The translations under genes and the position numbers were made by a program. Positions 1,749 through 41,177 of a stretch of 64,000 bases of DNA are shown one piece after another. The DNA is taken from positions 31,312,001 to 31,376,000 of the forward strand of contig CM097885.1 of assembly GCA_044892525.1 (NCBI GenBank), in the 5' to 3' direction. This DNA comes from Schmidtea polychroa (taxonomy: Eukaryota). The notes below the pieces were generated by a model. The model saw only the letters and a program-made list of their open reading frames with translations, had not been told where the DNA came from and did not search any database. Position 1 is the stretch's first letter; every line of letters starts with the position of its first letter.

Positions 1749-3582
1749 GATACCCAAGATAGTGTATATCAATTCAATATTTCATAAAAAGGGTGTGTTA
1801 ATTATTGCATACCCGACCTATACTCTACCAGTCCGTATTTTCTAGAATAGAGCAAGTGAAGTTCATATTTTCTATATACATGTCGTCTATTTCACAAAAC
1901 CAAGTTGCACGATAATGTACTTCGATAACATATTTCATAACCTCGCTATTACGACTGGTTGATGTGTTCCGTGCCAAGACGGAGACTCTCAATTTTCAGG
2001 TTCATAATATGTAGAGGGTACCGTTTAGACCTAAGGCCATGCGAAAACACCTTCAACAAATTGATACTTTGCACTCTCAATCGATGTAAGATCGATCGGA
2101 GATGCAAGTCTTGAAAATCCAGGTCAAGCAACAAGGGACTCAGGATAACCGAACCTTGATCGACCAATACCTAGTTGAACAGATAGAAAATGATTTTCCC
2201 ACTCAATCACGGAACCCAAATCCGCGAACTACTATACTTCTTCCAGTCCCAAACAACTGTCAATCAAGCGACAGGCGGAAAGGGGCCAATAACTCCTGAA
2301 TTATTCCTGCATTCTGCTCATGATAATTGATATAAGAGTTCGTGTATAGCAGGAATAAAAATGGTGTGCTCCGTGTTGTGTTCGTTGTTTCCTTGTATGA
2401 GTAAAAGATTTCCTTAACCCACATTATATTATAGGAGATAATACACCCTACTCTAAATTTCATGGGTTTTTTTAAATTATTAGAGCATAGAACAAGGGGG
2501 ACCTAAGAGAATTCAGACACAGGCCTTCTATCGCAGTCTGCAAACCTATTCCAGTGCTTGGTGATTATAGTGTACAGAAGTACGCTCACTTTTCCCGAGT
2601 ATTCGCCGACACATTACCAGCGTTGATTGCTCAACGGGAGCCGAATAGTGAAGTAAGCAGTTGTATCTTGGGTTGCGTCAGAAACCACACGAAAGAGTAG
2701 AATGTGGATTACCTGCGACTCACCCATACGTACACATTTTGCCCCATATTCCATAATCGCGACAAATACTTTTCTGATCGTCACTGTCTTAGTTTTATTC
2801 ACATTCTAAGGCCATAGAAAACTTTGTTGATCTAACTTATTAATAAAAAGAAAACACCGTCAAAGTTTCAATTCTGCAATGTAAGTTCATTGTGTCATGG
2901 TTGTCGAAATTGTCAGAAATGAAAATTAAATATATATATCAAAATTTGGTTTTGTTTAAATCACATAATAAGTTTTATTTCGAAAAGTTAATTATTTTCT
3001 ATTTTAACTATAATTATTTTTAATTTAATAATTTTCCGATAACAAAATTACTCATTTCATTTCTACATAACAATTTTGATATTTTTTCCCTCGCAATAAA
3101 TTATCTTATACAAACAAAAGCTGTTACACAATTCCTGATTTGTTCTTTTTATATTGTATCAGTAGCAAGTTTAATTATTAAATCTTTTTTGGTAATCATT
3201 AAAAATAATAGTTAATAGAATATAATATAGTGAACATTTGTGATTGATTAGATAATTTCTGGCTCATATAAATTCTTTAATTAATTACAGTCATTCAAAC
3301 AAAGGTAGAAAAAGTAAAAAACAAAACTTATGATGCTGACTTGAAGATAAACGTCAAATTTTAGTATATATAGTTACATAAATTTACATAAATTGTCCAG
3401 AAATAAAAGTTAAATACACAAAAATTGTAATGTTATTTAAAAAATACGAATAAATTGATTGATACCATCAATTATTGAGCACTAAACTTGACAGGACGCG
3501 GTTATATCTTAATTTTTTAGAAAGTCCAGTAACAAGACGGAGGCAAATAAGTTTAAAGTTTTCATTTTTTAGACGACTGATG

Positions 3583-4580
3583 AGTAGTAAGATGTGTCAC
3601 CTCCAGGACATGTCACCTCCAGGACACATATATATAAGTAGGTCAAGTTAAAATTAAGTAGATCAAGTTAAAATTATGTAGGTCACGACTATATAGGTAT
3701 TAAAATATGTAGGTCAAGTTACTTTAAATATATGTTACCTCCAGGACACTATATAAATAAATAAGTCAAATTAAGTAGGTCACGACTATATAGTTTATAA
3801 AAAATATGTAGGTCAAGTTATTTTTAACATGTATCCCTATAATATATACATCATTCAAAAGATATTTGAGAGTAGAGTACAATGATCATACCTTCAAAGG
3901 TGTATGGTGAATCCCTAACCTTCAAAAGGTGCAAAACCCTCGAATTTTTTCAAACTCTATAATACATGTCATTCAAAAGGTAATTGAGATGTGAGTATGA
4001 TGGTCATACAATCAAAGGTGTATGGTGAGTCCTTCACCTTCAAAGGGTCAAAAAATTTCGAATTTTTTCAAACTTTATAATATATATACATCATTCAAAA
4101 GGTATTTGAGAGTAGAGTGTGATGGTCAAACCTTCAAAGATGTATGGTGAGTCCTTACCCTCAAGTGTCAAAAACTTTGATTTTTATTCAAACTGTAAAT
4201 TGATCATTTCAACAAATCTTTCAATCCCCAAAATAAATTTCCCAACTCAAAAATTTCCCAAATTTTAAAAATTCCCAAAAACAATTTTCCCAACTCAAAT
4301 TTTTTCAAAAATTAAAAAGTCCTAAAAATGAAATTCCCCAAATTTCCCAACTCAAAATTTTTCAAATTTTAAAAAGTTTTCAAAACTATTTTCCCAAATT
4401 TTCCAACTAAATAGTAAAAGAATGTTTTACAATTTTTTTTTTTTCCTCGAATACATCAAACCAAAAATTTAACAAGGTTCGTCACACAAATCTAATTTTG
4501 AAATCAAACAAATGAATTTAATAAAAATTAAAATCATCGACATACACAACAGCCGTTCGCCCGCCCGCCCCGAAGGGGCT
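3583..4580 (+). repeat. Left terminal inverted repeat of Polinton 1
   Basis: Reverse complement of 18701-19719. Differences seen by eye: one substitution near 4323, homopolymer length (T12 vs A15) and an 18-nt expansion of the GC repeat on the right. Confidence 0.96.
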
Positions 4581-4659
4581 GGCGCGGTAGTTTGTAAATT
4601 TGGTTTAGTTTGAATATTATTTTGAGTATTAATAACAAAGGTAAAGAAATAAATGTTTA

Positions 4660-5217
4660 TTAAATGTATATAGTATGATACTCATTAATATACATTGAAC
4701 ATGCTTTACATTTGCGAACATTTGAATCATGGCATTTAGAACATACAATTACATGTCCGCAAGGTAAAAACAAAACCGATACTTGATTTTCTTTACAAAT
4801 GTAACAAGTTAAATACATTTTCCTACCATCATTGAGTTTTTTCCTTAGCTTATTTTCAATCAATTCGGATTTCGATATCCATTCATAAATCAATCTACTA
4901 CTATATCCTGGTTCCAGCCTTAAATCCATACAATTCCAAAAGCATTCATTCAATGAATCATTATCTACTATTGCTTTGTCTAAATGCATCAAATAAATCG
5001 ATAACTTCAAAATGCATTCATTGTAATTAAATAAATCAATCAAATATCCAATGGAGGAATGTTTGAAAATTTCTAAAATTTTTATGGTTTCCTTTTCAGT
5101 GAGAGTATCATAATTGTTCATAAAATCTTCAACGGGGCAGTTTAAAAACTTGAATGATCTCGTGGTCATCAGTAATTTCTTAATAAATTTATGAAAATAC
5201 TTATATTCTGCACACAT
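4660..5217 (-). CDS. Accessory protein with C-terminal IAP/MDM2-type RING finger (putative E3 ubiquitin ligase); no BIR motif seen
   Basis: C-terminus CYICKENQVSVLFLPCGHVIVCSKC...CKAC..I...HTIYI fits the C3HC4 RING of IAPs, including the hydrophobic tail. Confidence 0.85.
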   Translation of the reverse strand: MCAEYKYFHKFIKKLLMTTRSFKFLNCPVEDFMNNYDTLTEKETIKILEIFKHSSIGYLIDLFNYNECILKLSIYLMHLDKAIVDNDSLNECFWNCMDLRLEPGYSSRLIYEWISKSELIENKLRKKLNDGRKMYLTCYICKENQVSVLFLPCGHVIVCSKCHDSNVRKCKACSMYINEYHTIYI

Positions 5218-5580
5218 TTATAAGAGATACATTAAAACAACTCATTTATTAAACAAGAAAATAATTTAAAATCAATAATGGTAATTTTAAGGATTATCTT
5301 CGATAGATTTTATTGAATAATGGTTCATTAAAAAGGTCTTGAAGAGCTCTATCCAATGGTTATATATTTGAAGATATAATGTTTGTGCACAATATAGTAA
5401 GTATTATTATTTTTATTATTATTTTTATTAACAAACTACATTCTAATAAAATACTTTTATACATCAAATTATTAAAAAAAAAAAAAAAAAAAAAAAAACC
5501 GATAATTATAAAACGAAAAAGAGACTTTACAATAATTTCTATTTTACAAAAAATCAAACAAGTCCGATCACAGAATTAAA

Positions 5581-8500
5581 TTAATCTTGTAGATGTTGAT
5601 TGATGAGATCGGGATCTGCTCCTGATTGAATATCATTATCGTCATTATCAATGACATCAACCCCTAAATAATGACCATATGCAAAACTAGAGTTTTTCTC
5701 TACCCAAGCTCTTTTATCATCATGATTAGTTAAAGCAATCTTTGAGTTTTTAAAGGTAAAAAGCTGATGATTTCGGGTTCCTATTCTAGTCTGAGGTACA
5801 GAAATAACTGTGTTGTTGTTGTAACAGTCTAAATAAGATTGATGTTTTATATCTGTACCTGGTAATTTTACGCCCTTAGCTCTCATAGTAGATTTATTTC
5901 CTAAAAGACTGTAGCACTTTGGTCGCAAGAAAACCCACTCACTATATCCTACACCCTTACTCTCATCCTTAAACTTTCCTATAACTGAGTCGAGTCTCCT
6001 AGAATATAAAGGATGAGAGGGATCATAATTTGAGGTGTCTAACAAGTCATCCGAAATCATCGCTGGCAAAAGAACGTCAAGCTTTACATTTTTGACCTCT
6101 AAGAAGAAACTATCGGTATCACCCGCAACTATATTTATATCACAGTTAAACTGACTCCTATATTTTGATAATTATATGTACTGTAATTGATACATCCTTA
6201 GTTTGGATAAATCCAGCACTGATTGTCCGATGTAGCTGGGTCTATCCAAACATATAGACTCCTTATTGAGATGTACACCAAAAAGATCATCATCAATTTT
6301 GATGGTTTTTCTAAATGATGGTTTTGATGAATATGTAATTAATTTTTCCGCGGAATTACATAGTCGTAAATTTAATCTCTTCTTAAGGTTTTCAACGGAT
6401 TTACCGTACAAGCTATTATTATACAATTTGAATAAATCTCTGTACAGTTCACTGCTTGCTTCAGCTCTTAGCTGTGTATTTTTATTTATATAATTTTTAA
6501 AAATCGGTGCTTGCTTGAATTTTGTAGCTCTATGGATGTGTACAACTTTGGCACCAAGAGACAAATAAAGCTTGAGAAGCCTCCAATGAAGAACATGGTT
6601 CTTCTTTGGCCAATGCGTGAGCATCAACTTTCGAACCAGGCGGGCACATTTTCTCAGGAGCAAGAGGAAAGTCATTTAAGAAATCATGAAAAATTTCTGG
6701 AATATCTATATCCACTTCTATGGTATAACCATAGGGAAGGATTTCAATGTCAGCATTCATGCACTCAAGCAATACATCATTCAATCCATCATACACCCAA
6801 GTGAAATCAGCAAAAGGAAGATTTTGGCTAAGAGCCCAACCATACAGATTATTTATATCAATATATAATAATTCTGTATTATCAGAAGCAGCAACGTAAT
6901 GTTTGTTAACAAATGTTAACCCACCACGTATTCCTCCTTCGTAAAAATTGAACATTTCCATGTCCTGTAAAAGTTCTATAGGCTCAGTTAATGTCATAAG
7001 CGCTGAGGCCCATGACATACCCGGAATACCATAAAAGTTTAGAGGTTCTAGACCATTGTATGCAATGGCCTTGGCACGAAATTGTTGGAAATAGTCCGCA
7101 AGGAGGAATACATCCAATTTTTGATAAGTTAACATATAGTCAGCCAATTTAGTACAACGTTGTTGAGTCCAAATAAGTTGAGCCTTAGCATACTCATCTT
7201 CAGTAACACCAGACCAAATAGGAGGCAATTCATAAGTGGTTTCAAGTACATCCAAATCAGTCGCATAATCATAAGGAAATATGGCTTTAGCATCTATTAT
7301 TAACCTATCAAAAACCGACGAAGTCAAAGGAAGATCAGTTAGAGTTTTTACAGCCTTAGCCAAAGAACAATTAACAAATTGTATGCTGTCGATAAAACGA
7401 ACAGCTAATTTTTTAATGTGAACAATCATCGAGATAAATTTCTCTGTGCTTGTGGGTATTATATTCAAATTCCAAGAAGGAAAACCATTGAGACCATATT
7501 TTAAAATATGGTGTAAGTCGTAGCCTCGTAAATTATGAAATACAATCGGCAGCTGTTTATAAATTCTGCGAGCCATATTACATTTCCTACAGGCTGCACC
7601 GAGATAATTACCAGTAAAATGGTCATGATCTCGAACAGCAAGGGATAAAACCTTCTTGCAAAGATAGCAGTTCCTACAAGATTTGAATTGTCGTTCCTCA
7701 GCAAAAGTCATAGGTCCTAACCGTTTTTTCCCTTCAAGCTCATAATAAGGTAGGACAATTGTGACAGCAATTTCCTCTACTTTTTTAAGAAATTGAGGTA
7801 TACAATCAAGACCATAAAACTCGTAATACGATTTTCTATTGTTAAGATTATTTATTAATAAAAGACCTGCTGAAATAGGTAAATGTATTTGATGATGTTT
7901 AACATCTTTAGGTAAAACCGATTCAAAATCGGCATAAATAACAAAGGGTGGGGTGATTCTCTTTGAATGATTTTGAAACTCTAAATATTTATTTTCGGGT
8001 AAAGTGTAAAGGGTTGTACCCGTTTGATTTTTACTGCATAGGGCCACATGTTTAGTGAAAGCATTGTCTAATCGAAAACCGTTAAGACAATGTGGGCACC
8101 ATTTGCATCTTATTTGAATACTACAGTCATTATTACGATGGCAGTTCATTAAACGTGTAATGTTGGTCACTGCGGTGTAATGATAATTATCCTTATTTTC
8201 CAAGAGTAATAAATAAATTCGAGTACCGATAGTAACCGTTGATCTGTGAATTATACTTAAGTGGGGGTGTTTAAAAACATAGTCATTAGGAACCTGATCA
8301 TCATCAACTATCACAGTAGGGGTATAAGCCAGAACATTTATGGCAAGATTTAAGTCTAAATTTTTCTTTTCGAATTTAGGTATATTACACAATTTCATCG
8401 GACAATCCGTGACTTCATTGTAATTAAGAATATTTAAAAGATTTTCATATTTTGAAACTCTTTCAGGGTGGCTACCTATTTCATCTTTTTTCAAGAGCGC

Positions 8501-9660
8501 GAGAATACTATAAAGGAAACACTTATGATCCTTATTTTTAACATTAATAATTGCTCCTTTAGATTTCAAATCTGCGGGTGTACGAATGTAACTATGACCA
8601 GATAGGCGACAAATAGGAGCAAATTTAGTCAGAATGAAATCAATCTCTAAGATATTAATTACTCTCCAGCCACTACCTAAATAGGTAAACTTTTCAATTT
8701 TTTCGTTTAACTTATTAACTCCCTCAATTAAAAAGTTATCCGAAAAGATCTCGGCGTTATTTGAAAAGTAGTTGTCACGGATTTCCCCATCTTTTTCAAA
8801 TCTTATAAGAATAGCGAATTGAATTTTGACGCTACCCATGTTATTTATTTCAGATGTTAACTTTTCAGTGATTTTATCCGTTATTATAATTTTAATTAAT
8901 TGTGAATCGGTAATATTAAATCGAATAGTTCGAATGGCGCCATTTAAATTTGATTCTATTATCGGCTCAATCGCTAAAGATGATCCACCTATTTGATTTA
9001 TAGTATTTATAGTATTATCATTATTTATATTTTCATTTATAGCATTTATAGTATCAATATTATCATTTATAATATCATGATTTATAGTATATTTAATATT
9101 ATTACATTCGTCATCACTGAGTAGAATGACTTCATTTTTAATAATTTCGTCGTCACTGATCTCAATAACTTCAGTTTTTATAATTTTATTTTTAATTTTA
9201 GACACCCTATGTTCAGCAGGTCTTTTGTTAGATTTCTTTTTTGTGTTATTATTTAAAATATTTACAATTTCAATGTTATTCTTATTTATTATTTTAAACA
9301 GTTCTTGTTTATTTGTTTTGAAAGAATTTAAGTGCTGAGAATGTTGACTATAAAATTCCTTATACCTTACACTCTGGGAAGTTTTGCATATGGGGCAAAT
9401 AAAAAAGTTGATGCCATTAAAAGGTTGGCGATAATATTTCTTCATATTTTTGTGGCATTTATTGTCATGACCCATAGACGAATTACAATATTTAGGATAA
9501 AATTTGCCTAATAAAAGTTAAATAATTATTTATTGAATGAAAATGTATTATTTATTTAATAATAATAATAATAATAATAAATGTAATTTAATCTTTCATT
9601 TAAAATTTGTCTATAATATTATCAACTATAAAATAATTAGTTAATGTTAAATAATGCTAA

Positions 9661-9743
<83 letters not shown>

Positions 9744-10373
9744 TACTACTATTACAATTACTATTATAATTATTACTATTACAATTACTATTTTAATGAT
9801 AACTGAAATAATTTACATAAAGTTATATTTACATTATATTTACATAAAATCTATATTATTATTAAGTTATTAATTAATTAAAAACTATATATTAATAAAA
9901 TGAAACATACATTTTGATTCGTTATTCGAAACTGAGTCCCCAATAGGGATGGGAGCATTCAAATTATACGCAACGGAGGTATCCACTACTGCGGCATTTA
10001 TTATTGGAAAATTCTTGTTATGAGAAACAGAAGATTCTAAAATGTTAATGGTAATACAATTTTAATTAAACTAATAAATTACCATTTTGGAATATGTTTG
10101 AAATATCTAATATGTCGTCATTTTCGGTAATTGCGGCCCAATCACCAAAATAATTGTCTAAATAATAAAGATAATAATAATAATTAAAGTATTTATAATA
10201 ATTATAAATATACCATTTCCATCATTTCCAGAACCTAATCGCCTATTGAAGACTGACGAGTTAACGGTACGAGTTTCTAATTGTAAATTTAATTATTTAA
10301 TATAAATAAATAAATAAAAATCCTTACCATTTCTCGAAAGAACCACATTGATTTTAGTATTAATTGATGACAT
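5581..10373 (-). pseudogene. Protein-primed DNA polymerase B (5 exons: 10373-10328, 10276-10214, 10157-10083, 10036-9911, 9507-5581); frameshift ~6624-6631 and in-frame TAA at 6172-6174
   Basis: Motifs: vOTU-like NKDHKCFLYS...HYTAV; ExoI YADFES; endonuclease-VII-like CYLC..RDHDHFTG..CRKCN; ExoII FHNLRGYD; ExoIII YQKLDV; PolA YIDINNLYG; PolB KLYNNSLYGK; PolC AGDTDS (read in frame after the TAA). Joins ORF-track pieces 6530-9475, 6172-6675 and 5581-6069. About 1414 aa if repaired. The family call is firmer than the 5' exon model. Confidence 0.93.
9662..9795. repeat. (ATT)n microsatellite inside predicted pPolB intron 4 (9508-9910)
   Basis: Long ATT run degenerating into ACT/ACAATT variants. 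Confidence 0.9.
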
Positions 10374-10537
10374 TTTAAAATTGTAATAAAATAATTATGA
10401 TGAAATTTGTATTACAATTGTTTATAACGTGATAATATGCCTTTGTTAATCATGCACGGAGCATGCACCGTTCATGACGGACTTTGTTATTATTGTAATA
10501 ATATAAAACATAATAATAATTATAAAAATAATAAAAC

Positions 10538-10575
<38 letters not shown>

Positions 10576-10626
10576 ACATAATAATAATTATAAAATAATA
10601 AAAACACATTTTTATAAAAACATTTA

Positions 10627-11030
10627 TTATTTAATAGACATAAGCCATCCTAAACAATGTTGTCCGCACGTACGAGTTAAAGGGTGTTGATACATTGTTT
10701 TATTATATACAATAGGTTTGCCCATTGTTTGTAGTTTCGAAACCAATAAAGCAGGATAATAGAAACCCATAGGATCGAATACATGTATCTTATCTGGTTT
10801 CATATAGATTGCAATCCAATGCTCTCCGCCGAGATGAGATGAATGGGTATTGACGATTATGGCTTGATTATTTTTCAAAAATGGTATTTTATCGAGAGGA
10901 AAAACTCCTAAAAATTCATTTCCTAATATTTGTTTTCCAATTCGATTAACCTGAACAGAACTATTTTAATAAATTAAACAGTATAAAAAACAACTTACTC
11001 CATGACAACTTTCTGTATTTCTGTATACAT
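10627..11030 (-). CDS. Adenain-like cysteine (maturation) protease, 2 exons (11030-10999, 10960-10627)
   Basis: FLGVFPLD...IIVNT...GEHWIA...FDPMG...YQHPLTRTCGQHC (His/Asp/Gln/Cys). Removing a 38-nt intron GTAAGT...AAAATAG gives MYTEIQKVVMDSVQVNRIG...; ATG at 11030 directly follows the MCP stop (alternative ATG at 11003). Confidence 0.92.
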
Positions 11031-12254
11031 TTATACCAGAACGGTTCTATTTGCAGTAATTTGAACTTCATTTTCAAATACTCCATATATTATAACATGC
11101 ACAGGTTCTGTAATAGCTTTTGCAAACTTTATATCTAATCGTAAATTTCCATTTTGAGGTAATTGACTCTGATTCAAATCAAAATCTGGGGCCAAAACAA
11201 ATGTAAAGAATGGATATTTGGATTTGAATTCTTCAAGAGTTATGCCGCAATTCAAATTTTTATCTAAATATCCCATATTTCTAACAATACTCTGCATATA
11301 TGTAGCACAGTAATTGTCACTATCGAAATCTTGAGTATATGTTTCTCGATAATCAGTATTTTTCGACAAAGTTAGAGATGTAACACCAAAGGTTTTGAAA
11401 ATTGAGCTGGAGGCACTATATAAACCATTATATTGTGCTTCACCTTGAAATGTTACCAGAATAAAGTTTGGCATTCTTCTATCTCCAAATATTTGTTCCT
11501 TATAGAAGGAAGAAGCACCTTTGGCTATTGCAAATGAAACAATTTCTTTTGTTTTCAGAGGATAGATTGCATGCTTAGAATTAAGACCCAACTGATGACC
11601 TGCTAATACCGACGGATCAACTCGAACTCTTCTTACTAGTAATTTTGCATCAACTAATTGACATATTGGTTGACCAGCACCACTAGTTAATGATAAAGAA
11701 GAATCGGTTCTTTTCAGTCTAATGTGTACATTGACTCCTGGAAGTAAATATTTTGGTTGATCCATAAAATCGAGTTGTAATGATGAACACATGGTGAAAA
11801 TCTTTGAGCCTTTAATCCATTTTTTCCGTTCGTCATCACTTGCTGCATAACCCATAGGAGTAAGACATGTATTTTTGGTGTCGGTATTATAATTTAAAAT
11901 AGTTTCTATTATCGCCTTGTGGATATATGTATTGTTGCCACCTTCAATCTTGATATTATTAAATCCAAGAATAGCATCTTTAAAAAGTGTATGAAACAAA
12001 AAATTATTAGGTATTGTAGCATCAGCATCACCCAAAGCCTTTTTATCTTTATCTATAACCTTGATTTGAACAGTCAATAAAGTATCATTCAAATCTAAAT
12101 ATTCTGTTTGAGAACCATTGATGTAAAATTCTACATCATTTCTACTATCGGTAATTGAATTCATAGGAAAAACTTCCTCAAATGCCCCAAATTCTATTAC
12201 AGCCTGGGGCGATGGTCTATCAAATATGCATAATTCAGATTTACCACAAATCAT
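11031..12254 (-). CDS. Major capsid protein (double jelly-roll, Polinton PY/hexon type)
   Basis: N-terminal CGKSELCIF...EVFP...VEFYING...YLDLNDTLL..QIKV and C-terminal FVLAPD...GNLRLDIKFAKA..VIIYGVFENEVQI match animal Polinton MCPs; intact 407 aa. Confidence 0.93.
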   Translation of the reverse strand: MICGKSELCIFDRPSPQAVIEFGAFEEVFPMNSITDSRNDVEFYINGSQTEYLDLNDTLLTVQIKVIDKDKKALGDADATIPNNFLFHTLFKDAILGFNNIKIEGGNNTYIHKAIIETILNYNTDTKNTCLTPMGYAASDDERKKWIKGSKIFTMCSSLQLDFMDQPKYLLPGVNVHIRLKRTDSSLSLTSGAGQPICQLVDAKLLVRRVRVDPSVLAGHQLGLNSKHAIYPLKTKEIVSFAIAKGASSFYKEQIFGDRRMPNFILVTFQGEAQYNGLYSASSSIFKTFGVTSLTLSKNTDYRETYTQDFDSDNYCATYMQSIVRNMGYLDKNLNCGITLEEFKSKYPFFTFVLAPDFDLNQSQLPQNGNLRLDIKFAKAITEPVHVIIYGVFENEVQITANRTVLV

Positions 12255-12619
12255 TTTGCAAATATAGTTCCATGTCCTTTCATTCGTTTGTTTATACGTG
12301 ATATTCCATGTCTTTTACGTTTTGGAGCTGGAGCTGGAGCTGGAGGTTTTTCTTTTTGAAACATACCAGCAACCCCGGGTAAAACTTTCCCTAATTCAGC
12401 TAAAGCATTTGATTTTAGAGATGGTAATATTTTCTGTTCATTCATAATAACATCTTTTGCAGTTTTCATACCAAAACTACCAATACGTTTAAGAATAGGC
12501 AATGCAAATCTACCAATTGTTCTCAACCATCCCGATCCGTACTGTTTACCAATAAAATATGGTAATTCACCGCCAGATTGGCTATCACTATACATACTAA
12601 TAATATCAGAATTAGCCAT
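12251..12619 (-). CDS. Virion core/membrane-active protein (Polinton protein with Q-x-G-G / Q-x-G-x-G motifs, functionally pVI-like)
   Basis: SQSGGELPYFIGKQYGSG followed by an amphipathic segment WLRTIGRFALPILKRIG and a basic C-terminus; sits between penton and MCP with overlapping start/stop codons. Confidence 0.75.
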   Translation of the reverse strand: MANSDIISMYSDSQSGGELPYFIGKQYGSGWLRTIGRFALPILKRIGSFGMKTAKDVIMNEQKILPSLKSNALAELGKVLPGVAGMFQKEKPPAPAPAPKRKRHGISRINKRMKGHGTIFAK

Positions 12620-13679
12620 CTACTTTACGAAAATGTAATGTCAAATGAGTTTTTGAACCTTTTGGAAAGTTTATAAGTTTTCCACTATCATCACGAATAT
12701 TTATTTCTATATTGTTTATACATGAACTTGCTATTGGTAAATACATGGGATTATCGATATTTATATTGACAACTTCATCATGTTCATATTTTCCAATCCA
12801 TACCGATTTCAAAAGAGGAACACTGGAATCACCAACAATTATGGGTTCGATAATGTTAGTATATATGAACATTTGTTGATGATGTTCTAGTATTCTTGGT
12901 TTGCGTATACCAGTCGATTTTTCTCTATATTTTTGCTTATCTAATCCAAGTGAATTTGCCAAATTTTTATCAAATGTAACTTCGCAAATATCCTCATTCA
13001 AACTGAAGGTAAACATCAAATCTTTCACAATTTCCAAATTTTTAAATATGTGTGAACAATTGAACTTTAAATATTTAAGTAATACATCAAGTTTATCAAA
13101 ATATAATTCATCAGCAAAGGTGAATGATTCTTCAACTTCATCATTATACGACACAGATATTTTTATTTCTTCTTTCACTATACTGTTTGCTTCAAATAGA
13201 TTAAAACGTAATAAATACTCGGTCTCCATAACAATATTTTTCAGCTTATTGCAACCCATTCGTTTGGCATCTTCAATAGTTTCGAATGTTATTGTAAATG
13301 GTTTAAAATCACAACTGATATTTAATCCATCCTTGTAAAATATATAGCAATGCGAATCTAATATTTGGTTCGGAATATGATATGTTTTATCATAATTACT
13401 AATAATAAAGATACCGCTACATGTTTTCACAATATTCCTTTTGAAATCAATCTTACATTGACTATAAAATGGGAATGTGTTGTACACGAATGTAAAATCT
13501 TGCAGTGCAACTTCCCAGTCACCATTTAGAGAAATCGGATTCTGGAGATTGACCATAAATTTACTGGCTTGATTGTCTGGATGAATTAATGGGCAACTAT
13601 TGCTCGGTAAAATAGTATAAAAATTCACTTTACTAGGTCCTTTGCTGATATCCATGACGGGTTTTGATAACCATGCCAT
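12612..13679 (-). CDS. Minor capsid protein (penton, single jelly-roll); start may be Met at 13655
   Basis: FYTILPSNS...PDN..SKF.VNL..PISLNGDWEVAL and MFIYTNIIEP..VGDS.VPLL...PMYLP....INNIEINIRDDSG..I.F....LTLHFRK are typical Polinton penton motifs. Confidence 0.9.
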   Translation of the reverse strand: MAWLSKPVMDISKGPSKVNFYTILPSNSCPLIHPDNQASKFMVNLQNPISLNGDWEVALQDFTFVYNTFPFYSQCKIDFKRNIVKTCSGIFIISNYDKTYHIPNQILDSHCYIFYKDGLNISCDFKPFTITFETIEDAKRMGCNKLKNIVMETEYLLRFNLFEANSIVKEEIKISVSYNDEVEESFTFADELYFDKLDVLLKYLKFNCSHIFKNLEIVKDLMFTFSLNEDICEVTFDKNLANSLGLDKQKYREKSTGIRKPRILEHHQQMFIYTNIIEPIIVGDSSVPLLKSVWIGKYEHDEVVNINIDNPMYLPIASSCINNIEINIRDDSGKLINFPKGSKTHLTLHFRKVDG

Positions 13680-14254
13680 TTGACATAGTATTGTTTATCC
13701 TTGCCGACCTTTTTAGTTTTCAATATTTTTTGAATTCTAAATACCTTTGGAGGAGGAATGACTTGTAATTCCTGCTCATAAAATTTCCCTTGTACAATAT
13801 TATTATCACTGTCTTTGATGACATACATTACAGGATTCTGTTTAGTATTTATTTTTGAAATTACAAAGACTTCATCACTCCAATTTGTATCAAAATTTTT
13901 AATAAATGGTGATGCACTAATTTTACTAATTCTAACACGATCACCGACTTTATATTTAGGTTTTGCAATTTTTACAGATTTCTTAGAATAGAATGTTTTT
14001 GATGTAATATCAACCGGTCTCAATCCATTCAGTCCTCGATGTGATGAATGATTATAACTTGTTATTATTTTCGGTAAAGCATTTACCCATTTTTTATTAC
14101 CTTGATGCACGAATAATTTCTTTAATCTATCTCTCAGTGTTCGATTAAATCTTTCAACATGGGCAGCTTTGTATTGAGAATGTACCGAGTAGTGATTTAT
14201 TTTCAGTTTATCGAGGATTTGCTTAACTTTGTTATTGTAGAATTCTTTACCTAA

Positions 14255-14319
<65 letters not shown>

Positions 14320-14707
14320 CCAAATCTGTTTGCAAGTTATTAGGATGTCCATCTTTAAATAAAATATTAATTGCCTTTGACATTTCATCTGCAGATTTTG
14401 CCTTGACTGGTATTGCTCGTGCAAACCTGCTGAATACATTAATACATGTTAAAATATATTTATTCCCATTGTTAATTTTCGAATACGGTATCATCTCCAT
14501 CAAATCCATTTGCCATAAATCGTCAATACCAAATGTTTTATATGCTCTTGTTGGAAATCTTTTCCGCATTGGTTTGTTCAAACTGTACGCAAGCTGATCT
14601 GATAACCACTTCTGGGTTTCTTTTTTCGAATTCGGAACTCTTTTCTTTAATTTTGCCACTCCACCGAAACCGGCTTCGTCTTCTGGGTTCGTCCAAATCT
14701 TCTCCAT
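13625..14707 (-). CDS. Retroviral-like DDE integrase with C-terminal chromodomain; 69-nt intron 14251-14319
   Basis: WQMDLMEM...LQTDLG|KEF...HVERFNRTL (D, D, E); KYKVGDRVRIS; GKFYEQELQ; chromo-like YYVKWHGY..PSWI. The poly-Ile run in the ORF track is GT(ATT)21TTAG. Confidence 0.95.
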
Positions 14708-14765
14708 TACAGCAAGAAGATTTAAAATTAAAATTTAAATTAGGTAATGAAGGATTAGCACCCAT
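14538..14765 (-). CDS. Putative small N-myristoylated protein overprinted on the integrase 5' end
   Basis: Starts 3 nt after the upstream stop; MGANPS fits MGxxxS; has a CC pair and basic PRRRSRFR. No homology recognised. Confidence 0.4.
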   Translation of the reverse strand: MGANPSLPNLNFNFKSSCCNGEDLDEPRRRSRFRWSGKIKEKSSEFEKRNPEVVIRSACVQFEQTNAEKISNKSI

Positions 14766-14768
14766 TGT

Positions 14769-15302
14769 TTATGATTGATTTCCTACAACTCCACCTAATA
14801 ATGATAATGCCAGAGGTATCAATGCACCAATAAATCCACCTTGTTGTTTATATATAATTTTCCTCATTTGCTTACGATTTTTATTATTTACTAATGATAA
14901 CAAAGGTTTCCTATGTTTGCTCAATAAATGCTTTTTTGATTTACTGATTTTAATTTTGCCTTTGACTACTTTAAGTATAATATTGAGTAAATCATCGACA
15001 ACAAAATTTGGGAATGATTGCAATATATTCATTCTTTTCATACTCGGGGCCTTTAACAATGCATTAAAAAATGGAAAACTGCGATGATTTTTAATTACTT
15101 TTTTACCGGCTTTACGGGTTTTACGGGTTTCACGTTTAGGTTTAGGATTTTTCGAAATAAGATTCATTGCAGAGAAATTTTCAGTTACAAGTTTTTTAGA
15201 TGGTGTATAACTAGTTGTTGGTGGAACCTTTGGAACTTTAATACTCTTTTTAATACTTTTTCTTAATTTCCTAATATTTTTCACCCTTGCTTTTAGAAAC
15301 AT
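14769..15302 (-). CDS. Basic DNA-binding core protein with C-terminal pX-like hydrophobic tail
   Basis: Very K/R-rich 177 aa; ends KQQGG-FIGALIPLALSLLGG, resembling the GGFLPALIP motif of adenovirus pX and Polinton core proteins. Confidence 0.75.
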   Translation of the reverse strand: MFLKARVKNIRKLRKSIKKSIKVPKVPPTTSYTPSKKLVTENFSAMNLISKNPKPKRETRKTRKAGKKVIKNHRSFPFFNALLKAPSMKRMNILQSFPNFVVDDLLNIILKVVKGKIKISKSKKHLLSKHRKPLLSLVNNKNRKQMRKIIYKQQGGFIGALIPLALSLLGGVVGNQS

Positions 15303-15320
15303 TATTATTCATAGAGGTTT

Positions 15321-15947
15321 TCAACTTTGTTTATAAACCATGGCACCTTTTGGGTTGAAAATATCTGTTTTTACTCGTAAATCATCGGGACATTGTTGTG
15401 TGAAATCAAGAAATATATATCCATGAGGTATTTTTGTAGCATCTTGAAATGCACTGATAAGAAAATTACGATTGTTAGGGTATGCTTGACGTGCAAGAAA
15501 ATCAATCACTGTTGCATCTCTAGGATTCTTGAAAATAACTAAATATTGTACATTTAAATTACGTGTTCGATGTGCACCACCTTGATGAAATAGATTTTGA
15601 GTTATAAAAATAACAGTTACACCAACGTGTCTACTGATTTTAGTAAATAAATTATTGAAATTCTTTTCTTTATTAGCTTCTTGATACAAGTCATCAATAA
15701 TTATGACATCCCCCTTCTTTAGTCTACTGGACCAATTTTTATCAAATCCCTCTACTATTTTCATATTTTTCAATTTACAGAAACTTGATTGAGTCAATCC
15801 GTGTTCTTGATCAGCACCTCGATGCCAATAAATTTTGTTAAATTTTGATTCAAGTAAATGTGATTTTAGTAATTTGCAAACAAACAAAGTTTTGCCGCTA
15901 CCACTTGGTCCGACTATTTGATATACAGCATCATTTCTTAGTTCCAT
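15321..15947 (-). CDS. A32/FtsK-like genome packaging ATPase
   Basis: Walker A GPSGSGKT, Walker B IIIDD, FTKISRH..VIFITQN, R.N..YLVIFKNPRD. Confidence 0.95.
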   Translation of the reverse strand: MELRNDAVYQIVGPSGSGKTLFVCKLLKSHLLESKFNKIYWHRGADQEHGLTQSSFCKLKNMKIVEGFDKNWSSRLKKGDVIIIDDLYQEANKEKNFNNLFTKISRHVGVTVIFITQNLFHQGGAHRTRNLNVQYLVIFKNPRDATVIDFLARQAYPNNRNFLISAFQDATKIPHGYIFLDFTQQCPDDLRVKTDIFNPKGAMVYKQS

Positions 15948-16062
15948 TTTTAATATTTATTTAAAAATTAATTTTGTTTATATCGTAAAGAATAAATTGA
16001 TTTAATTACTCTATAATATAATATATATATATATACTTGATTTTTATAAATATTCAGTAGAA
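15948..16062. promoter_or_regulatory. Putative bidirectional promoter between the structural gene block and the TBP-like gene
   Basis: 115-nt divergent intergenic region with TATAATATAATATATATATATATA (~16012-16035), TATAAATA and an Inr-like TCAGT before the ATG at 16063. Confidence 0.5.
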
Positions 16063-16575
16063 ATGTTGACAAATATTAATTATAGAGGTCGTGTGTCTTT
16101 GGAAACTGTTGGTATGATGAATTTCCCCAAGTGTAAACCACAACAATATGTCGACAAAACTGGAAAATATACTATTATATTTTTCAAAAATGGTAAATGT
16201 CGTATAATGGGTTGTAAGAAGCCTATCGAATTCAAGAATTTGCAATATAATATCAAAGATATTCAAGTTCAAAGTCTTACTATAGCTACCAAGGTTGAAC
16301 AATCTATTAATTTGAATAATTTAGCAAAGTTATTAGATGGAGATTGTATATATGAGCCTGAATTATTTCCCGCTCTGCGTTATACAAAATATAATCCACT
16401 ATGTGTAAATATATTTTCGAGTGGTAAAATAGTTGTACTAGGTATTAAAAATTTAGATTTTCATACTATTGTTGAAGGAATTATAAACGATGTAAAGGAT
16501 TTGATTGGATCTTTAACAATTTCTTCAAATATAAGTAATGAGGATTTGCTTGAATATTTATTCAACAATGATTGA
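16063..16575 (+). CDS. Divergent TATA-binding protein (TBP) homologue
   Basis: Two-repeat TBP pattern: LTNINY / TIIFFKNGKCRIMGCK (repeat 1) and IQVQSLT..INLNNLA..IYEPELFPALRY...VNIFSSGKIVVLGIK (repeat 2; cf. cellular YEPELFPGLIY...LIFVSGKIVLTGAK). Confidence 0.9.
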   Translation: MLTNINYRGRVSLETVGMMNFPKCKPQQYVDKTGKYTIIFFKNGKCRIMGCKKPIEFKNLQYNIKDIQVQSLTIATKVEQSINLNNLAKLLDGDCIYEPELFPALRYTKYNPLCVNIFSSGKIVVLGIKNLDFHTIVEGIINDVKDLIGSLTISSNISNEDLLEYLFNND

Positions 16576-16936
16576 ACATGAAGGTAACTGTTTTTATTTT
16601 AAATTTATTGATTTTTGTTTAGAAACTATACTAAAAATTTTGATTGATAAAATTGAAGATTTTTATCCGAATTTGAACAATTCCTTAATGTATTGTGCTC
16701 CAGAAGTTGTGTTTTACAAAATTTATGAAATAACTGGAATAAATGTAATAGATTTAATTCATATGGATCATGCTACGATTACATGTTATACCGATGATGT
16801 TGAAAATTGTGATTTTTGTAAAAATAATATGCAGAATACTTGTGGGGATGATAGTTGTACATGTTTTGTAAATCTACAGAAACGAGAAATAATTCATGCA
16901 TTACTTGTGAAATTGCGAAAAAATGTATTGTTGTAA
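16568..16936 (+). CDS. Cys/His-rich hypothetical protein (possible Zn-binding)
   Basis: ATG at 16568 overlaps the TBP-like stop (ATGATTGA); cluster H..C..CDFC..C....CTC; AATAAA at the stop. Confidence 0.6.
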   Translation: MIEHEGNCFYFKFIDFCLETILKILIDKIEDFYPNLNNSLMYCAPEVVFYKIYEITGINVIDLIHMDHATITCYTDDVENCDFCKNNMQNTCGDDSCTCFVNLQKREIIHALLVKLRKNVLL

Positions 16937-17138
16937 TAAAATATAATTATATTTGTTTTGTGATAACCTTAACTAACCTATAATATTTCTTTGTGTACAA
17001 TAAATCATTTCAGACTTTGTTATTTAGCATAAAATGAACTAGTTGATCACGTTTTGATCATGCCTGTCACTTGAAACTTGTTTACAATGAAATTAGTATA
17101 AAATATCTGGTTCAAATTATTAAATATTATAACTACAA

Positions 17139-17730
17139 ATGGATAATCAAATTACAGGTTTGTTGTCGTTTACACATATTCCATTTATTAGTTTTTTAAT
17201 CTAGGAGTTTTGAAGAGAAAAAATGCAGATGCCGCTCAGGAATTCGGAAAACGGAAATTTAAAGAAGCGACATTATCCTCGGAAACCTTGGTCAATGTTC
17301 GAGTGGATACAAAAAAGCCAGTCGAATTCATGCAATACAAACTAAATTATTTGTATTGTCCAATTTCCTATACATTTAAGGTAAGTTTCTATAAATTATT
17401 TTGGATTTTATTATTATTATTTATTGTTAGGAACCAGTAACTCTGGAAAAATGTTTCTACAATGTGAGACTTTCCAAAATCAAGTTTCATGACAAGATGC
17501 TATTGGGACAATTATTTCAGAGGATCAATGAAAATATTGAATTTGATGATGAAGATATGTTCATTAGAAACGATTTGGATATGATTCCCAATGGTGGTAA
17601 GATGAGCAAAATAACCTGCATGGTTACCATATTAATTCAAGGGTATAATGTAAGCAGAGACCGAATCAAACCAATTTGGAAAATTATAAAAGCCGAAGAT
17701 AAGTTTGAAGAGGAACATTGTTCATGTTAA
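17139..17730 (+). CDS. Hypothetical protein, 3 exons (17139-17157, 17205-17380, 17431-17730), 164 aa; possible OB-fold ssDNA-binding protein
   Basis: 47-nt and 50-nt GT-AG introns join ORF-track pieces 17210 and 17464 in frame; TATAAAA about 40 nt upstream of the ATG. The SSB function is inferred only from the C-terminal beta pattern. Confidence 0.7.
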
Positions 17731-17802
17731 ATTTATTTAATACATCTTTATTAGTGTTTTGGTGTTTTTAAATCATTGAAAATAACTAAAGTTTCAAATT
17801 TA

Positions 17803-18188
17803 TTAATCTTCAATACAATCTCTTTTCATTATATTTTCAACAATATGATCAATACAATTAGTAGAAACAATAGATTCATCTTCTTTAGATTCATTTGGTA
17901 ATTTATCTGTTGTAGAATTCTCAATACATGACTTAAGTTCTTCACTAGGCAAATCAGTATATTCATCTTCTTGCTGGGAAATATTTTCAGATTCATATGA
18001 CATATCATCTTCATTAATTTCATCGTCTGAATACGGCCATTTTAATTTCTCTGGAACATTCATAAATTCTCTAATTTTTACATTAGATATTTCCTCTAAT
18101 TTTTCAATCAAAAAGTTGATTATATATGCTAAATAAAAAAAAAAAGAATTAATAAACATAAAATTCATATTTTACCTTTTTCCGACAT
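17803..18188 (-). CDS. Acidic hypothetical protein, 2 exons (18188-18176, 18128-17803), 112 aa
   Basis: ATG TCG GAA AAA G|gtaaaa...tttttatttag|CA TAT gives MSEKAYIINFLIEKL...; the poly-T 'FFFY' in the ORF track is the intron pyrimidine tract; D/E-rich body. Confidence 0.65.
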
Positions 18189-18700
18189 GGTTGAAAATAA
18201 TTAAAATGAAAAAATAATTATGTTTATACTATTATTCAAAAGCAACAAGATGATCGATAGATAGATTATAAGAAAATTAGATATTTCAACACGATACATA
18301 TAATAAAAAGACAAGCAAACTTGCAATGATATTTAACGTTTCAGTTTTTACATTTTTTTTTTTAATATTTATTTCAATTATTTCGACAACACAAAAAAAG
18401 TCAATTTTTTTTTTTACTAATTAATTTTCAGCCTAACCTACAACTTTTCACAAAAATCCAAAAAAAAAATGAGACCTTTTTAATGAACCATTATTCAATA
18501 TAATCTATCGAAGGTAATCCTTAAAATTCCAAATTTAAAATGTTCGCAAATGTAAAGCATGTTCAATGTATATTAATGAGTATCATAATATAAACATTTA
18601 TTTCTTTACCTTTGTTATTAATACTTTGAATATTGTAAATAATAAAACTATGTATCAAATAATAATATTCAAAATAAACCAAATTTACAAACTACCACCC

Positions 18701-19719
18701 AGCCCCTTCGGGGCGGGCGGCGGGCGGCGGGCGGGCGGGCGAACGGCTGTTGTGTATGTCGATGATTTTAATTTTTATTAAATTCATTTGTTTGATTTCA
18801 AAATTAGATTTGTGTGACGAACCTTGTTAAATTTTTGGTTTGATGTATTCGAGGAAAAAAAAAAAAAAATTGTAAAACATTCTTTTACTATTTAGTTGGA
18901 AAATTTGGGAAAATAGTTTTGAAAACTTTTTAAAATTTGAAAAATTTTGAGTTGGGAAATTTGGGGAATTTCATTTTTGGGACTTTTTAATTTTTGAAAA
19001 AATTTGAGTTGGGAAAATTGTTTTTGGGAATTTTTAAAATTTGGGAAATTTTTGAGTTGGGAAATTTATTTTGGGGATTGAAAGATTTGTTGAAATGATC
19101 AATTTACAGTTTGAATAAAAATCAAAGTTTTTGACACTTGAGGGTAAGGACTCACCATACATCTTTGAAGGTTTGACCATCACACTCTACTCTCAAATAC
19201 CTTTTGAATGATGTATATATATTATAAAGTTTGAAAAAATTCGAAATTTTTTGACCCTTTGAAGGTGAAGGACTCACCATACACCTTTGATTGTATGACC
19301 ATCATACTCACATCTCAATTACCTTTTGAATGACATGTATTATAGAGTTTGAAAAAATTCGAGGGTTTTGCACCTTTTGAAGGTTAGGGATTCACCATAC
19401 ACCTTTGAAGGTATGATCATTGTACTCTACTCTCAAATATCTTTTGAATGATGTATATATTATAGGGATACATGTTAAAAATAACTTGACCTACATATTT
19501 TTTATAAACTATATAGTCGTGACCTACTTAATTTGACTTATTTATTTATATAGTGTCCTGGAGGTAACATATATTTAAAGTAACTTGACCTACATATTTT
19601 AATACCTATATAGTCGTGACCTACATAATTTTAACTTGATCTACTTAATTTTAACTTGACCTACTTATATATATGTGTCCTGGAGGTGACATGTCCTGGA
19701 GGTGACACATCTTACTACT
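18701..19719 (-). repeat. Right terminal inverted repeat of Polinton 1
   Basis: Reverse complement of 3583-4580; ends CTTACTACT followed by the TSD. Confidence 0.96.
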
Positions 19720-19899
19720 CTGATGCAACTAATTTATTTAAGATATTCCAAATCGGAACATATAATTGTAATAATATTTATAGTGCTTCCAAATGCATAA
19801 TCTAGAAAAGGAAGTACTATTATTATTGATATATTATTGATATAGAACACATGCATACAATACTTTACTTAAAAAAATAAAATTTTATTTTATAATACA

Positions 19900-25794: not shown

Positions 25795-25846
<52 letters not shown>

Positions 25847-26192
25847 TTTTTTTTTATTTATTTATTTATTTATTTATTTTTTACATTTACCTTTAATTTA
25901 TTCTACCAAGAACAAAATTTATAACAAGAATATTGCAATTTGAATAAAATTTTAATTAGAAATTATTTAATTTATTATAAAATAAAACGCTGAGTTAATT
26001 TTAGATAAACCGGATATTAATTTTTCGGAAAAAAAAAATAAATAAAATAATCACGAAAATAATATATTTATTACTTGAAAATAATTATATAAATTAATTG
26101 GACAAATGAATAATTAAATGATAAAACACATTTTAATTAACTAAGTCAAATAATTCACAATACATATTTTATTATTCACATAAATTTAATTG

Positions 26193-27163
26193 TTAAAGTG
26201 CTTGTTTCGATTTGCATTCATTTCTAGACATAGCAGTTGCAATATGCATTTGACAAATCTTATAATGACCGTAGGCATAACTTTCATTACAATTGTACCA
26301 ATACCTTTTATCGTCCAAACATTGGAGAGCTCGTTTTTCTGTCATGAAAGTATACAACTGATGATTGACACTTCCTATTCTTTTTTGTGGGATGCTCACT
26401 GCTCCACCATCAGTATAGACTTTTTTATAGGCTTCATGTTTAAGATTAGAATTTGTAGGTCTTTTCCTTTGGCTTTTAGAGTGTTTTTATCACCTTGGAG
26501 TGAGTAGCACTTGGGTCGAAGAAACACCCATTCTTTATATTGATTTCCTTTATTCTCATCCTTGACTTTCCCGATTACCGAACAAATTTTATCTGAGAAC
26601 AATGGATAGGCCACTGGATAATTTGAAGTATCTAGGAGCCCATCGGCAATCATTTTTGGATACAGTTGTAAGTGTAAATCAACATTTTTACACTCTAAAA
26701 AGAAGGAATCTGTGTCACCGGCTACGATATTAATTTGACAATTGAATTCTTCTCTATAACTCTGTAGTTCCTTATATCGAAACTGGTACATGCGAAGTTT
26801 AGATAAATCAAGTACGGTTTGTCCAATATACATTGGTCTATCTAAAAACACCATTTCCTTATCAAGTATAACAGTAATGAGATCATCAGCAATCTTGATG
26901 CTACGACAAAACATAGGAATACTACAATAAGTTTTCAATCTTTTGCTTTTGCTGCATAATCTCAAGTTTATACGTTTCTTAAGGTTTTTCACGGTTTTAC
27001 CGTATAAACTGTTGTTCTTTAACTTATAATAATCTCGCTGAAATGAATCTGTACTAGCTGCTCTCATTTGAGTATTGTAATCAATATAGTCTTTGAAAAT
27101 AGCTATTTGCTTGAATTCTACAGCGTGATTAACTTTGTGACTTTTGCGCCATAACTCAATCAT
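26193..27163 (-). pseudogene. C-terminal fragment of protein-primed PolB (Polinton 2), 5'-truncated and frameshifted near 26460
   Basis: KLKNNSLYGK, YIGQTVLDLSK, AGDTDS, LDTSNY, GKVKDE, LRPKCYS, DDKRY; clearly homologous to, but distinct from, the pPolB at 5581-6675. Confidence 0.92.
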
Positions 27164-27567
27164 TCAGTCAAAACTCTACTATTAATAACATTAATTATTA
27201 ACATCTAGGTATGAAATGCATATTGTAACTGCTATGTCTAGAAATGAATGCAAATTGAAACCAGCACTTTAACAATTAAATTTATGTGAATAATAAAATA
27301 TATATTATGAATTATTTGACTTAGTTAATTAAAATGTGTTTTATCATTTAATTATTCATTTGTCCAATTAATTTATATAATTATTTTCAAGTAATAAATA
27401 TATTATTTTCGTGTTTATTTTATTTATTTATTTATTTTTTTATTTTATCTAAAATTAGCTCAGCGTTTTATTTTATAATAAATTAAATAATTTCTAATTA
27501 AAATTTTATTCAAATTGCAATATTCCTGTTATAATTTTTGTTCTTGGTAGAATAAATTAAAGGTAAA

Positions 27568-27610
<43 letters not shown>

Positions 27611-41123: not shown

Positions 41124-41177
41124 GTCTAAAGTATACATAGGTGGTAATCTTATAAAAATATAAATTTACGTTTATTA

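Follow-up and report, generated by a model that had tools for sequence, protein, structure and literature searches.

Putative spliceosomal introns in core and accessory genes of a Polinton from Schmidtea polychroa

The Polinton and its interrupted genes

The window analysed here, a 64,000-nucleotide stretch of Schmidtea polychroa DNA (contig CM097885.1, forward-strand positions 31,312,001 to 31,376,000), harbors a complete Polinton/Maverick element of 16.1 kb, recognized by its terminal inverted repeats (TIRs), target-site duplication and gene content, in which ten GT-AG gaps interrupt the pPolB, protease and integrase genes and three accessory genes. The termini are of the (AGT)2//(ACT)2 type, with long TIRs and a 6-bp duplication on both sides, and the element encodes a protein-primed family B polymerase (pPolB), a retroviral-type integrase, a packaging ATPase and an adenovirus-type protease. 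Pfam matches above the cut-off were obtained for pPolB (PF03175), the protease (PF00770), the A32 ATPase (PF04665), TBP (PF00352) and RING (PF13920), while the rve integrase and chromodomain matches fall below it, the integrase being confirmed by 241 homologues and an alignment. Intronless core genes, a common description of Polintons and no formal criterion, are not what is found here. The boundaries of the element are as follows:

3577-3582, unstranded: left target-site duplication, CTGATG, 6 bp
3583-19719: complete Polinton/Maverick, 16.1 kb
3583-4570, unstranded: left TIR, starting AGTAGT; the two arms are 100% complementary
18729-19719, unstranded: right TIR, ending ACTACT, approximately 990 nt, the same as the left arm
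19720-19725, unstranded: right copy of the target-site duplication, CTGATG

The genome contains at least 150 near-identical copies of the protease, the 150 scored matches all being identical in protein, and all 40 scored DNA matches to the element show 98-100% identity. Judged by these identities the family is young and high-copy and the window copy recently inserted. Its six interrupted genes comprise the exons and introns (I1 to I10) below, where X1 denotes a sequencing run considered in the next section and L-numbers denote matching loci:

5581-9507, minus strand: last exon of pPolB (PF03175), broken in the window copy near 6.6 kb and 6.2 kb
9508-9910, minus strand: I4, 403 nt, phase 1, ATT-repeat body; same acceptor in 5/5 other lineages examined
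9911-10036, minus strand: pPolB leader exon 4
10037-10082, minus strand: I3, 46 nt, phase 1; exact joint in the X1 contig
10083-10157, minus strand: pPolB leader exon 3
10158-10213, minus strand: I2, 56 nt, phase 1; exact joint in the X1 contig; L110 has a second phase-1 leader intron
10214-10276, minus strand: pPolB leader exon 2
10277-10327, minus strand: I1, 51 nt, phase 1; retained in the X1 contig
10328-10373, minus strand: predicted first coding exon of pPolB, ATG at 10373
10627-10960, minus strand: exon 2 of the adenovirus-type protease (PF00770)
10961-10998, minus strand: I5, 38 nt, phase 2; same site in 6/6 other loci tested
10999-11003, minus strand: first coding exon of the protease, 5 nt
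13625-14250, minus strand: integrase exon 2, with chromodomain
14251-14319, minus strand: I6, 69 nt, phase 1, ATT-repeat body; in frame and stop-free in the window copy
14320-14707, minus strand: integrase exon 1
16568-16936, plus strand: two-exon accessory gene (exons 16568-16583 and 16623-16936), no Pfam family
16584-16622, plus strand: I10, 39 nt, phase 1, in frame; acceptor at the same place in L111 of lineage B, by eye
17139-17730, plus strand: three-exon accessory gene, no family found
17158-17204, plus strand: I7, 47 nt, phase 1; counterpart in L121, by eye
17381-17430, plus strand: I8, 50 nt, phase 0; same site in L121
17803-18188, minus strand: two-exon acidic accessory gene
18129-18175, minus strand: I9, 47 nt, phase 1; same site in L115

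A preliminary description of this DNA, made from the letters alone, had listed nine GT-AG introns in five genes. All nine intervals start with GT and end with AG on the strand given and have the lengths reported (51, 56, 46, 403, 38, 69, 47, 50 and 47 nt for I1 to I9, seven of them 38-56 nt), with a GC content of 3-26%, and the reading frames place seven in phase 1, as had been claimed, with I5 in phase 2 and I8 in phase 0. The count was nevertheless short, as a tenth GT-AG intron (I10) lies in a sixth gene, where it was overlooked because it is in frame. Annotation by open reading frames (ORFs) was rightly expected to mangle these genes. Read in this way, the protease is left without a start codon, pPolB lacks both its leader and the first cysteine of a conserved Cys/His motif (I4 divides the codon of this cysteine), and a spurious poly-Ile run appears in the integrase.

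For a null set, GT..AG intervals of 35-70 nt were taken within five long coding frames of the element. An A+T content of at least 0.84 is found in 0/190 of these intervals and in eight of the nine introns first listed. The excess of phase 1 is weak (P = 0.004 for 7/9 on a 30% background; P = 0.03 for 5/7 with the leader counted once). The proposed likeness to the short AT-rich introns of the host was borne out at chaperonin loci, where 20 introns were called in 9/10 loci, 16 of them 35-61 nt in length and all AT-rich, with phases 10/6/4 (from a rough finder with a limit of 400 nt, some calls of which are possibly false). In a protein comparison, the best match of a host chaperonin shows 93% identity, followed by two long entries labelled as fish and plant (62% and 55%), one at 71% and a series of tapeworm and fluke proteins at 64-66%, which points to a flatworm host, probably free-living and planarian-like. 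Planarian genes are likewise reported to show an intron length peak of 45-85 nt (PMC13594981). The gaps thus combine GT-AG ends with a host-like length and composition, features of U2-type introns.

The suggestion that introns are concentrated in enzymatic or early genes failed, since the protease lies in the capsid module and its intron is widely shared, the ATPase is intronless, and two lineages possess an intronless integrase. Intron placement is better described as near the 5′ end of genes, with the first intron following 46, 5, 16, 19 and 13 coding bases in five genes and 388 in the integrase.

Conservation and RNA-like joints

The intron boundaries were followed in two sets of sister copies, set 1 comprising the 39 other matches of an intron-containing DNA query and set 2 comprising 40 of the at least 150 protease matches, chosen regardless of introns. 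In set 1, GT-AG ends are kept in 39/39 copies for I1-I5 and in 38/38 for I6-I9. The corresponding values in set 2 are 40/40 for I5 and I6, 38/38 for I7 and I10, 36/36 for I8, 34/35 for I9 and 21-22 of 21-22 for I1-I4. Across the 79 copies no intron has been lost, no intronless copy was seen and one donor, that of I9, is mutated, an outcome in line with the preliminary description, which had named sister copies lacking these boundaries as grounds for refutation. Lengths vary among copies from 376 to 466 nt in I4, 45 to 132 nt in I6 and 41 to 52 nt in I9, the last in all three frames.

Several further Polinton lineages are present in the genome, and 9/10 intron sites recur among them, some of these having been read by eye. 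No counterpart of I3 was seen in the diverged lineages examined; this intron has an RNA-like joint instead. Sites are common to lineages that are approximately 50% identical in pPolB, which agrees with the earlier claim of long adaptation to the host. The protease intron I5, together with the 5-nt first coding exon, occurs at the same site in 6/6 diverged loci, while the sequence of a seventh (L126) is scrambled at this position. The protease ATG of outside relatives, such as L169, L177, L187 and L194, directly precedes the domain (by eye). Locus L110 shares with the window pPolB a 46-nt first exon followed by a phase-1 intron (by eye).

The integrase intron I6 has a more uneven distribution. 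It is absent from 36 rows of lineages B and C (some places counted twice) and present in five rows, one of them degraded, while among 18 further loci of the genome it is present in 12, absent from three and unplaced in three. In L277 it measures 33 nt and contains an in-frame stop, and as such must be spliced for a full integrase to be made. The insert is missing from 25/25 aligned integrase homologues, and 88/96 outside loci show a contiguous integrase motif (loose pattern). In a tree built on the piece after I6 (36 rows, 5 skipped), the rows from the S. polychroa genome and one outside protein form a single clade (96/94), and the outgroups are without I6. On the simplest reading, I6 was likely gained inside the clade of this host, and some lineages may have lost it afterwards. 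A 6-nt direct repeat of exonic sequence flanks I6 in both L277 and lineage D, which points to a probable origin of this intron through duplication of a short exonic segment at the splice point.

Four sequencing runs were compared with positions 9870-14262, within which I1, I2, I3 and I5 wholly lie; no run is recorded as RNA, and the RNA nature of runs X1-X3 is presumed. A 527-nt contig of run X1 skips exactly 10037-10082 (I3) and 10158-10213 (I2), with CT..AC ends, and so provides exact joints for two of the four introns wholly inside the compared stretch. Its one listed variant base occurs in 2/22 genomic copies of set 2 and 0/39 of set 1, and because both carriers possess I1, I2 and I3, splicing is favored over a retrocopy as the source of the contig. 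From the lengths of its pieces, the contig ends at 9911, the I4 donor, and a poly-T loose end appears in a run belonging to that study. A contig of run X3 breaks off six letters inside I6 and has 18 further letters; it was treated as a hint only, its loose end not being displayed. Stretches that lacked cover or a joint were given no weight, and long non-canonical joints (e.g. 11115 to 12493) were not taken as splicing, as they come from diverged contigs.

These observations indicate, with a probability of roughly 0.85 for the whole set, that the gaps are real, host-type spliceosomal introns in a bona fide Polinton, likely removed from pPolB, protease, integrase and the three accessory genes by the host spliceosome. 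Confidence is higher for I2, I3 and I5, and lowest for I7 and for constitutive splicing of I1.

A number of points weigh against this reading. The X1 contig runs unbroken through 10214-10495, so that the junctions foreseen in the preliminary description were found for I2 and I3 but I1 was read through, with the caveat that reads seem cut at a repeat within I1 and a spliced form may be hidden. No I5 joint is among the 15 joints listed (19 more are unlisted), and the RNA support amounts to one contig from one run of one study, the run being presumed RNA; as this result is confined to the region of I1-I3 and I5, I4 and I6-I10 rest on comparative evidence. I7, with an A+T content of 0.74 that is equalled by 12% of the null intervals, is the weakest by composition. 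I6 and I10 have lengths divisible by three in 77/78 and 75/76 copies, respectively, and both are in frame and stop-free in the family of the window, making read-through possible. The expectation that introns diverge faster than exons was borne out for indels (5.43 events per kb in introns vs 0.28 in exons, relative to set 1 and mostly by repeat slippage), but substitutions among these close copies show no difference (4.79 vs 5.39 per kb), and the identity of the protease intron is lower than that of the exons in only 5/6 lineages. The 25 aligned integrase homologues were called as single ORFs, which favors intronless ones, and the inner order of the integrase clade, and hence the order of I6 gain and loss, is not settled by the tree.

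The gapless X1 contig, with I1 kept and I2 and I3 removed, bears on a narrower alternative, in which, although the introns are genuine, the first part of the pPolB leader goes untranslated or I1 normally stays in the transcript, such that most messages lack a full pPolB or use a later start. In keeping with this, leader exons 1-4 have no tblastn match in other lineages and 18/40 set-2 copies possess a wholly different leader. The apparent cutting of reads at the I1 repeat, however, lessens the weight of the contig. Furthermore, all four leader introns preserve one stop-free frame, the leader introns of L110 and L127 are also all in phase 1 (by eye), and the Cys/His motif, which lies upstream of the first shared Met and requires both I4 splicing and an upstream start, is kept in 6/6 lineages. 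We consider this alternative unlikely.

The ATT-rich bodies of I4 and I6, the poly-Ile read-through of I6 and the two breaks in the last pPolB exon of the window copy, which went unmentioned in the preliminary description, might instead suggest AT-rich insertions or microsatellite expansions in decaying copies that are never spliced. Against this stand the exact RNA-like joints at I2 and I3 and boundaries common to all copies but one and to the lineages with approximately 50% identity, while 11/20 sister copies examined combine the gaps with a last pPolB exon open to its end, rendering decay highly improbable. Insertion of introner-type mobile elements into the provirus, for which polinton-like elements of dinoflagellates provide a precedent (PMC11957031), is very unlikely. 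A repeated intron family at unrelated sites was not found in the comparison, which was made within the element only: among 36 intron pairs, only I2/I6, both ATT-rich, beats all 300 shuffles, and the introns are inherited at fixed sites and not scattered among copies.

The pPolB leader shows further features. Leader exons 1-3 each end in AATG. An origin by duplication of an exon-intron module was rejected, with 0/6 leader exon pairs beating shuffles. The different leader of the 18/40 set-2 copies (L296-L335) is multi-exon and acidic, diverges near 10446 and accompanies the same capsid/integrase module, and the leader exchange was likely a module swap, as judged from this pattern. Terminal protein (TP) and vOTU domains at the pPolB front have been given as a Polinton feature (PMC11161782). 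Within the long last pPolB leader intron of L121 (4032-5129) lies an antisense, intron-bearing homologue of the three-exon gene of the window (by eye), and the stretch before the I4 acceptor in L113 (7880-8330) seems to hold an antisense Cys-rich gene (by eye).

Capsid module, other genes and neighboring elements

The remaining genes of the element were detected as single frames:

4660-5217, minus strand: RING-finger accessory frame, stop to stop (PF13920, E 4.5e-10)
11031-12254, minus strand: major capsid protein (MCP), double jelly-roll by predicted fold, intronless
12251-12619, minus strand: small conserved core gene, PW-like from its position
12612-13694, minus strand: minor capsid/penton candidate, from position and relatives
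14769-15308, minus strand: conserved core gene, PZ-like from its position
15321-15956, minus strand: A32-like packaging ATPase (PF04665), intronless
16063-16575, plus strand: TBP-like gene, single frame (PF00352)

As the preliminary description had held, the MCP, penton, two small core genes, ATPase and TBP genes are single open frames, and for the MCP, penton and ATPase the alignment with relatives extends over the full length. A model of the MCP from a 25-row alignment has a predicted local distance difference test score (pLDDT) of 87, against 34 for a single-sequence fold, and by structure comparison its predicted fold matches the capsids of iridovirus, PBCV-1, mavirus and Sputnik, as expected of a Polinton capsid; sequence searches against solved structures gave no match. 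The minor capsid/penton candidate was assigned from position and relatives alone, Pfam giving no match. Pfam searches of the accessory exons returned nothing useful, and an Atlas search with the last exon of the three-exon gene gave 0.75 at best.

The RING gene may contain an intron as well, but no position could be assigned to it. The segment 18470-18700, inside the right TIR, resembles the inverted region 4620-5340, which takes in the 3′ end of the RING gene and the sequence upstream of that gene (by eye), and looks like a deleted remnant of a formerly longer repeat. The short TBP-like gene is present too in metagenomic relatives, e.g. L130, L137 and L144. Elsewhere in the window, 25846-27607 is a small element, seemingly a non-autonomous derivative, in which nested inverted repeats enclose a pPolB C-terminal fragment (26396-27163), and 39130-43462 contains pieces of a hAT-type transposase on opposite strands, with a hAT dimerisation domain (39130-39597) and a BED finger (41625-42209).

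Many pPolB C-terminal matches in the genome form outward-pointing pairs on opposite strands, approximately 10 kb apart (e.g. L128/L129, C3:7000500-7018199). L128/L129 comprises two pPolB genes with no integrase or capsid match, and around five AT-rich GT-AG gaps at sites other than those of the window (by eye). The high-copy sister lineage L114/L115 (C1:86970100-86990099; 92% protein identity) carries the ATPase, integrase, capsid genes and protease, with no pPolB match within 10 kb on either side. Going by their gene content, L114/L115 and the pPolB-only elements could constitute a split, complementing system.

Origin of the introns and comparison with known systems

Integrated copies of the element would be transcribed in the nucleus by the host and spliced like its short-intron genes. 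Removal of I5 would supply the protease start codon, that of I4 would restore the initial Cys of the conserved Cys/His motif in the front part of pPolB, and that of I6 would reunite the two parts of the integrase core directly behind the second catalytic Asp. Polintons replicate from DNA to DNA without a reverse-transcription step, and a gained intron is therefore likely to be inherited by all descendant copies, its body then drifting by repeat slippage. The introns were probably acquired step by step during the residence of the clade in this host.

The introns may have been selected rather than carried as passengers, spliced transcripts evading nuclear small-RNA silencing or being exported better. 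The position of the first intron within 46 coding bases in 5/6 genes is compatible with such an adaptation, as are reports that planarian Polintons are PIWI targets (PMC8532177) and that introns hinder nuclear RNA interference in C. elegans (PMC5554785). However, many identical copies are likewise present in lineages whose integrase is intronless, and the MCP, penton and ATPase genes manage without introns, making selection of this kind doubtful.

Regulated splicing is established for adenovirus transcripts and for the intron control of the Drosophila P element. In these systems, as in the Polinton of the window, the host spliceosome is needed for replication or transposition proteins, whereas regulation is only hinted at here by the one contig retaining I1. 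A rather speculative and, in our estimation, improbable extension is that splicing forms an on/off layer, in which regulated I1 retention keeps integrated copies latent in most cells and host splicing is required for the protease start codon, the first polymerase metal ligand and the integrase core; this would represent a P-element-style switch in a polintovirus, evolved via intron gains in one animal lineage.

Surveys of Polintons assume intronless genes, and intron-bearing, recently active lineages would consequently be scored dead or missed. Intact vertebrate Mavericks are described with eight "intronless ORFs" in a survey that regards predicted introns as decay (PMC8097293), and another applied a prokaryotic gene caller since such elements "do not contain introns" (PMC10120064). 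Group I introns have been reported in some Polinton-like viruses (PLVs; PMC12220804). Our literature search found no account of spliceosomal introns being inherited in the core genes of animal Polintons; Repbase and supplements were outside this search and may annotate these exons. The genome of S. polychroa offers a rare animal set for the study of intron gain, with lineages that possess and lack the same intron in one genome, young copies in the hundreds and outgroups without introns. Reliance on splicing implies nuclear, host-like expression and bears on whether Polintons behave as transposons or viruses.

The element of the window resembles the vertebrate Mavericks (PMC8097293) in its size of approximately 16 kb, long TIRs, (AGT)2//(ACT)2 ends and 6-bp duplication, as well as in the module order integrase, minor capsid, PW, major capsid and protease, together with pPolB and ATPase genes. 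It differs in that its pPolB, protease and integrase genes are split, no introns being reported in the vertebrate account. Further differences are that its core genes share a single strand and that it includes TBP-like and RING genes. Nematode Mavericks share the presence of introns inside a Maverick, but there the introns lie in host-derived cargo and the core is called intronless (bioRxiv 10.1101/2022.07.12.499685), whereas here they lie in core genes. The maverick-polinton-like proviruses of dinoflagellates contain spliceosomal-intron-generating sequences inside full-length elements (PMC11957031); those introners, however, are repeated mobile families mostly inserted post-integration, while the Polinton of S. 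polychroa carries ten mutually unrelated introns at fixed sites.

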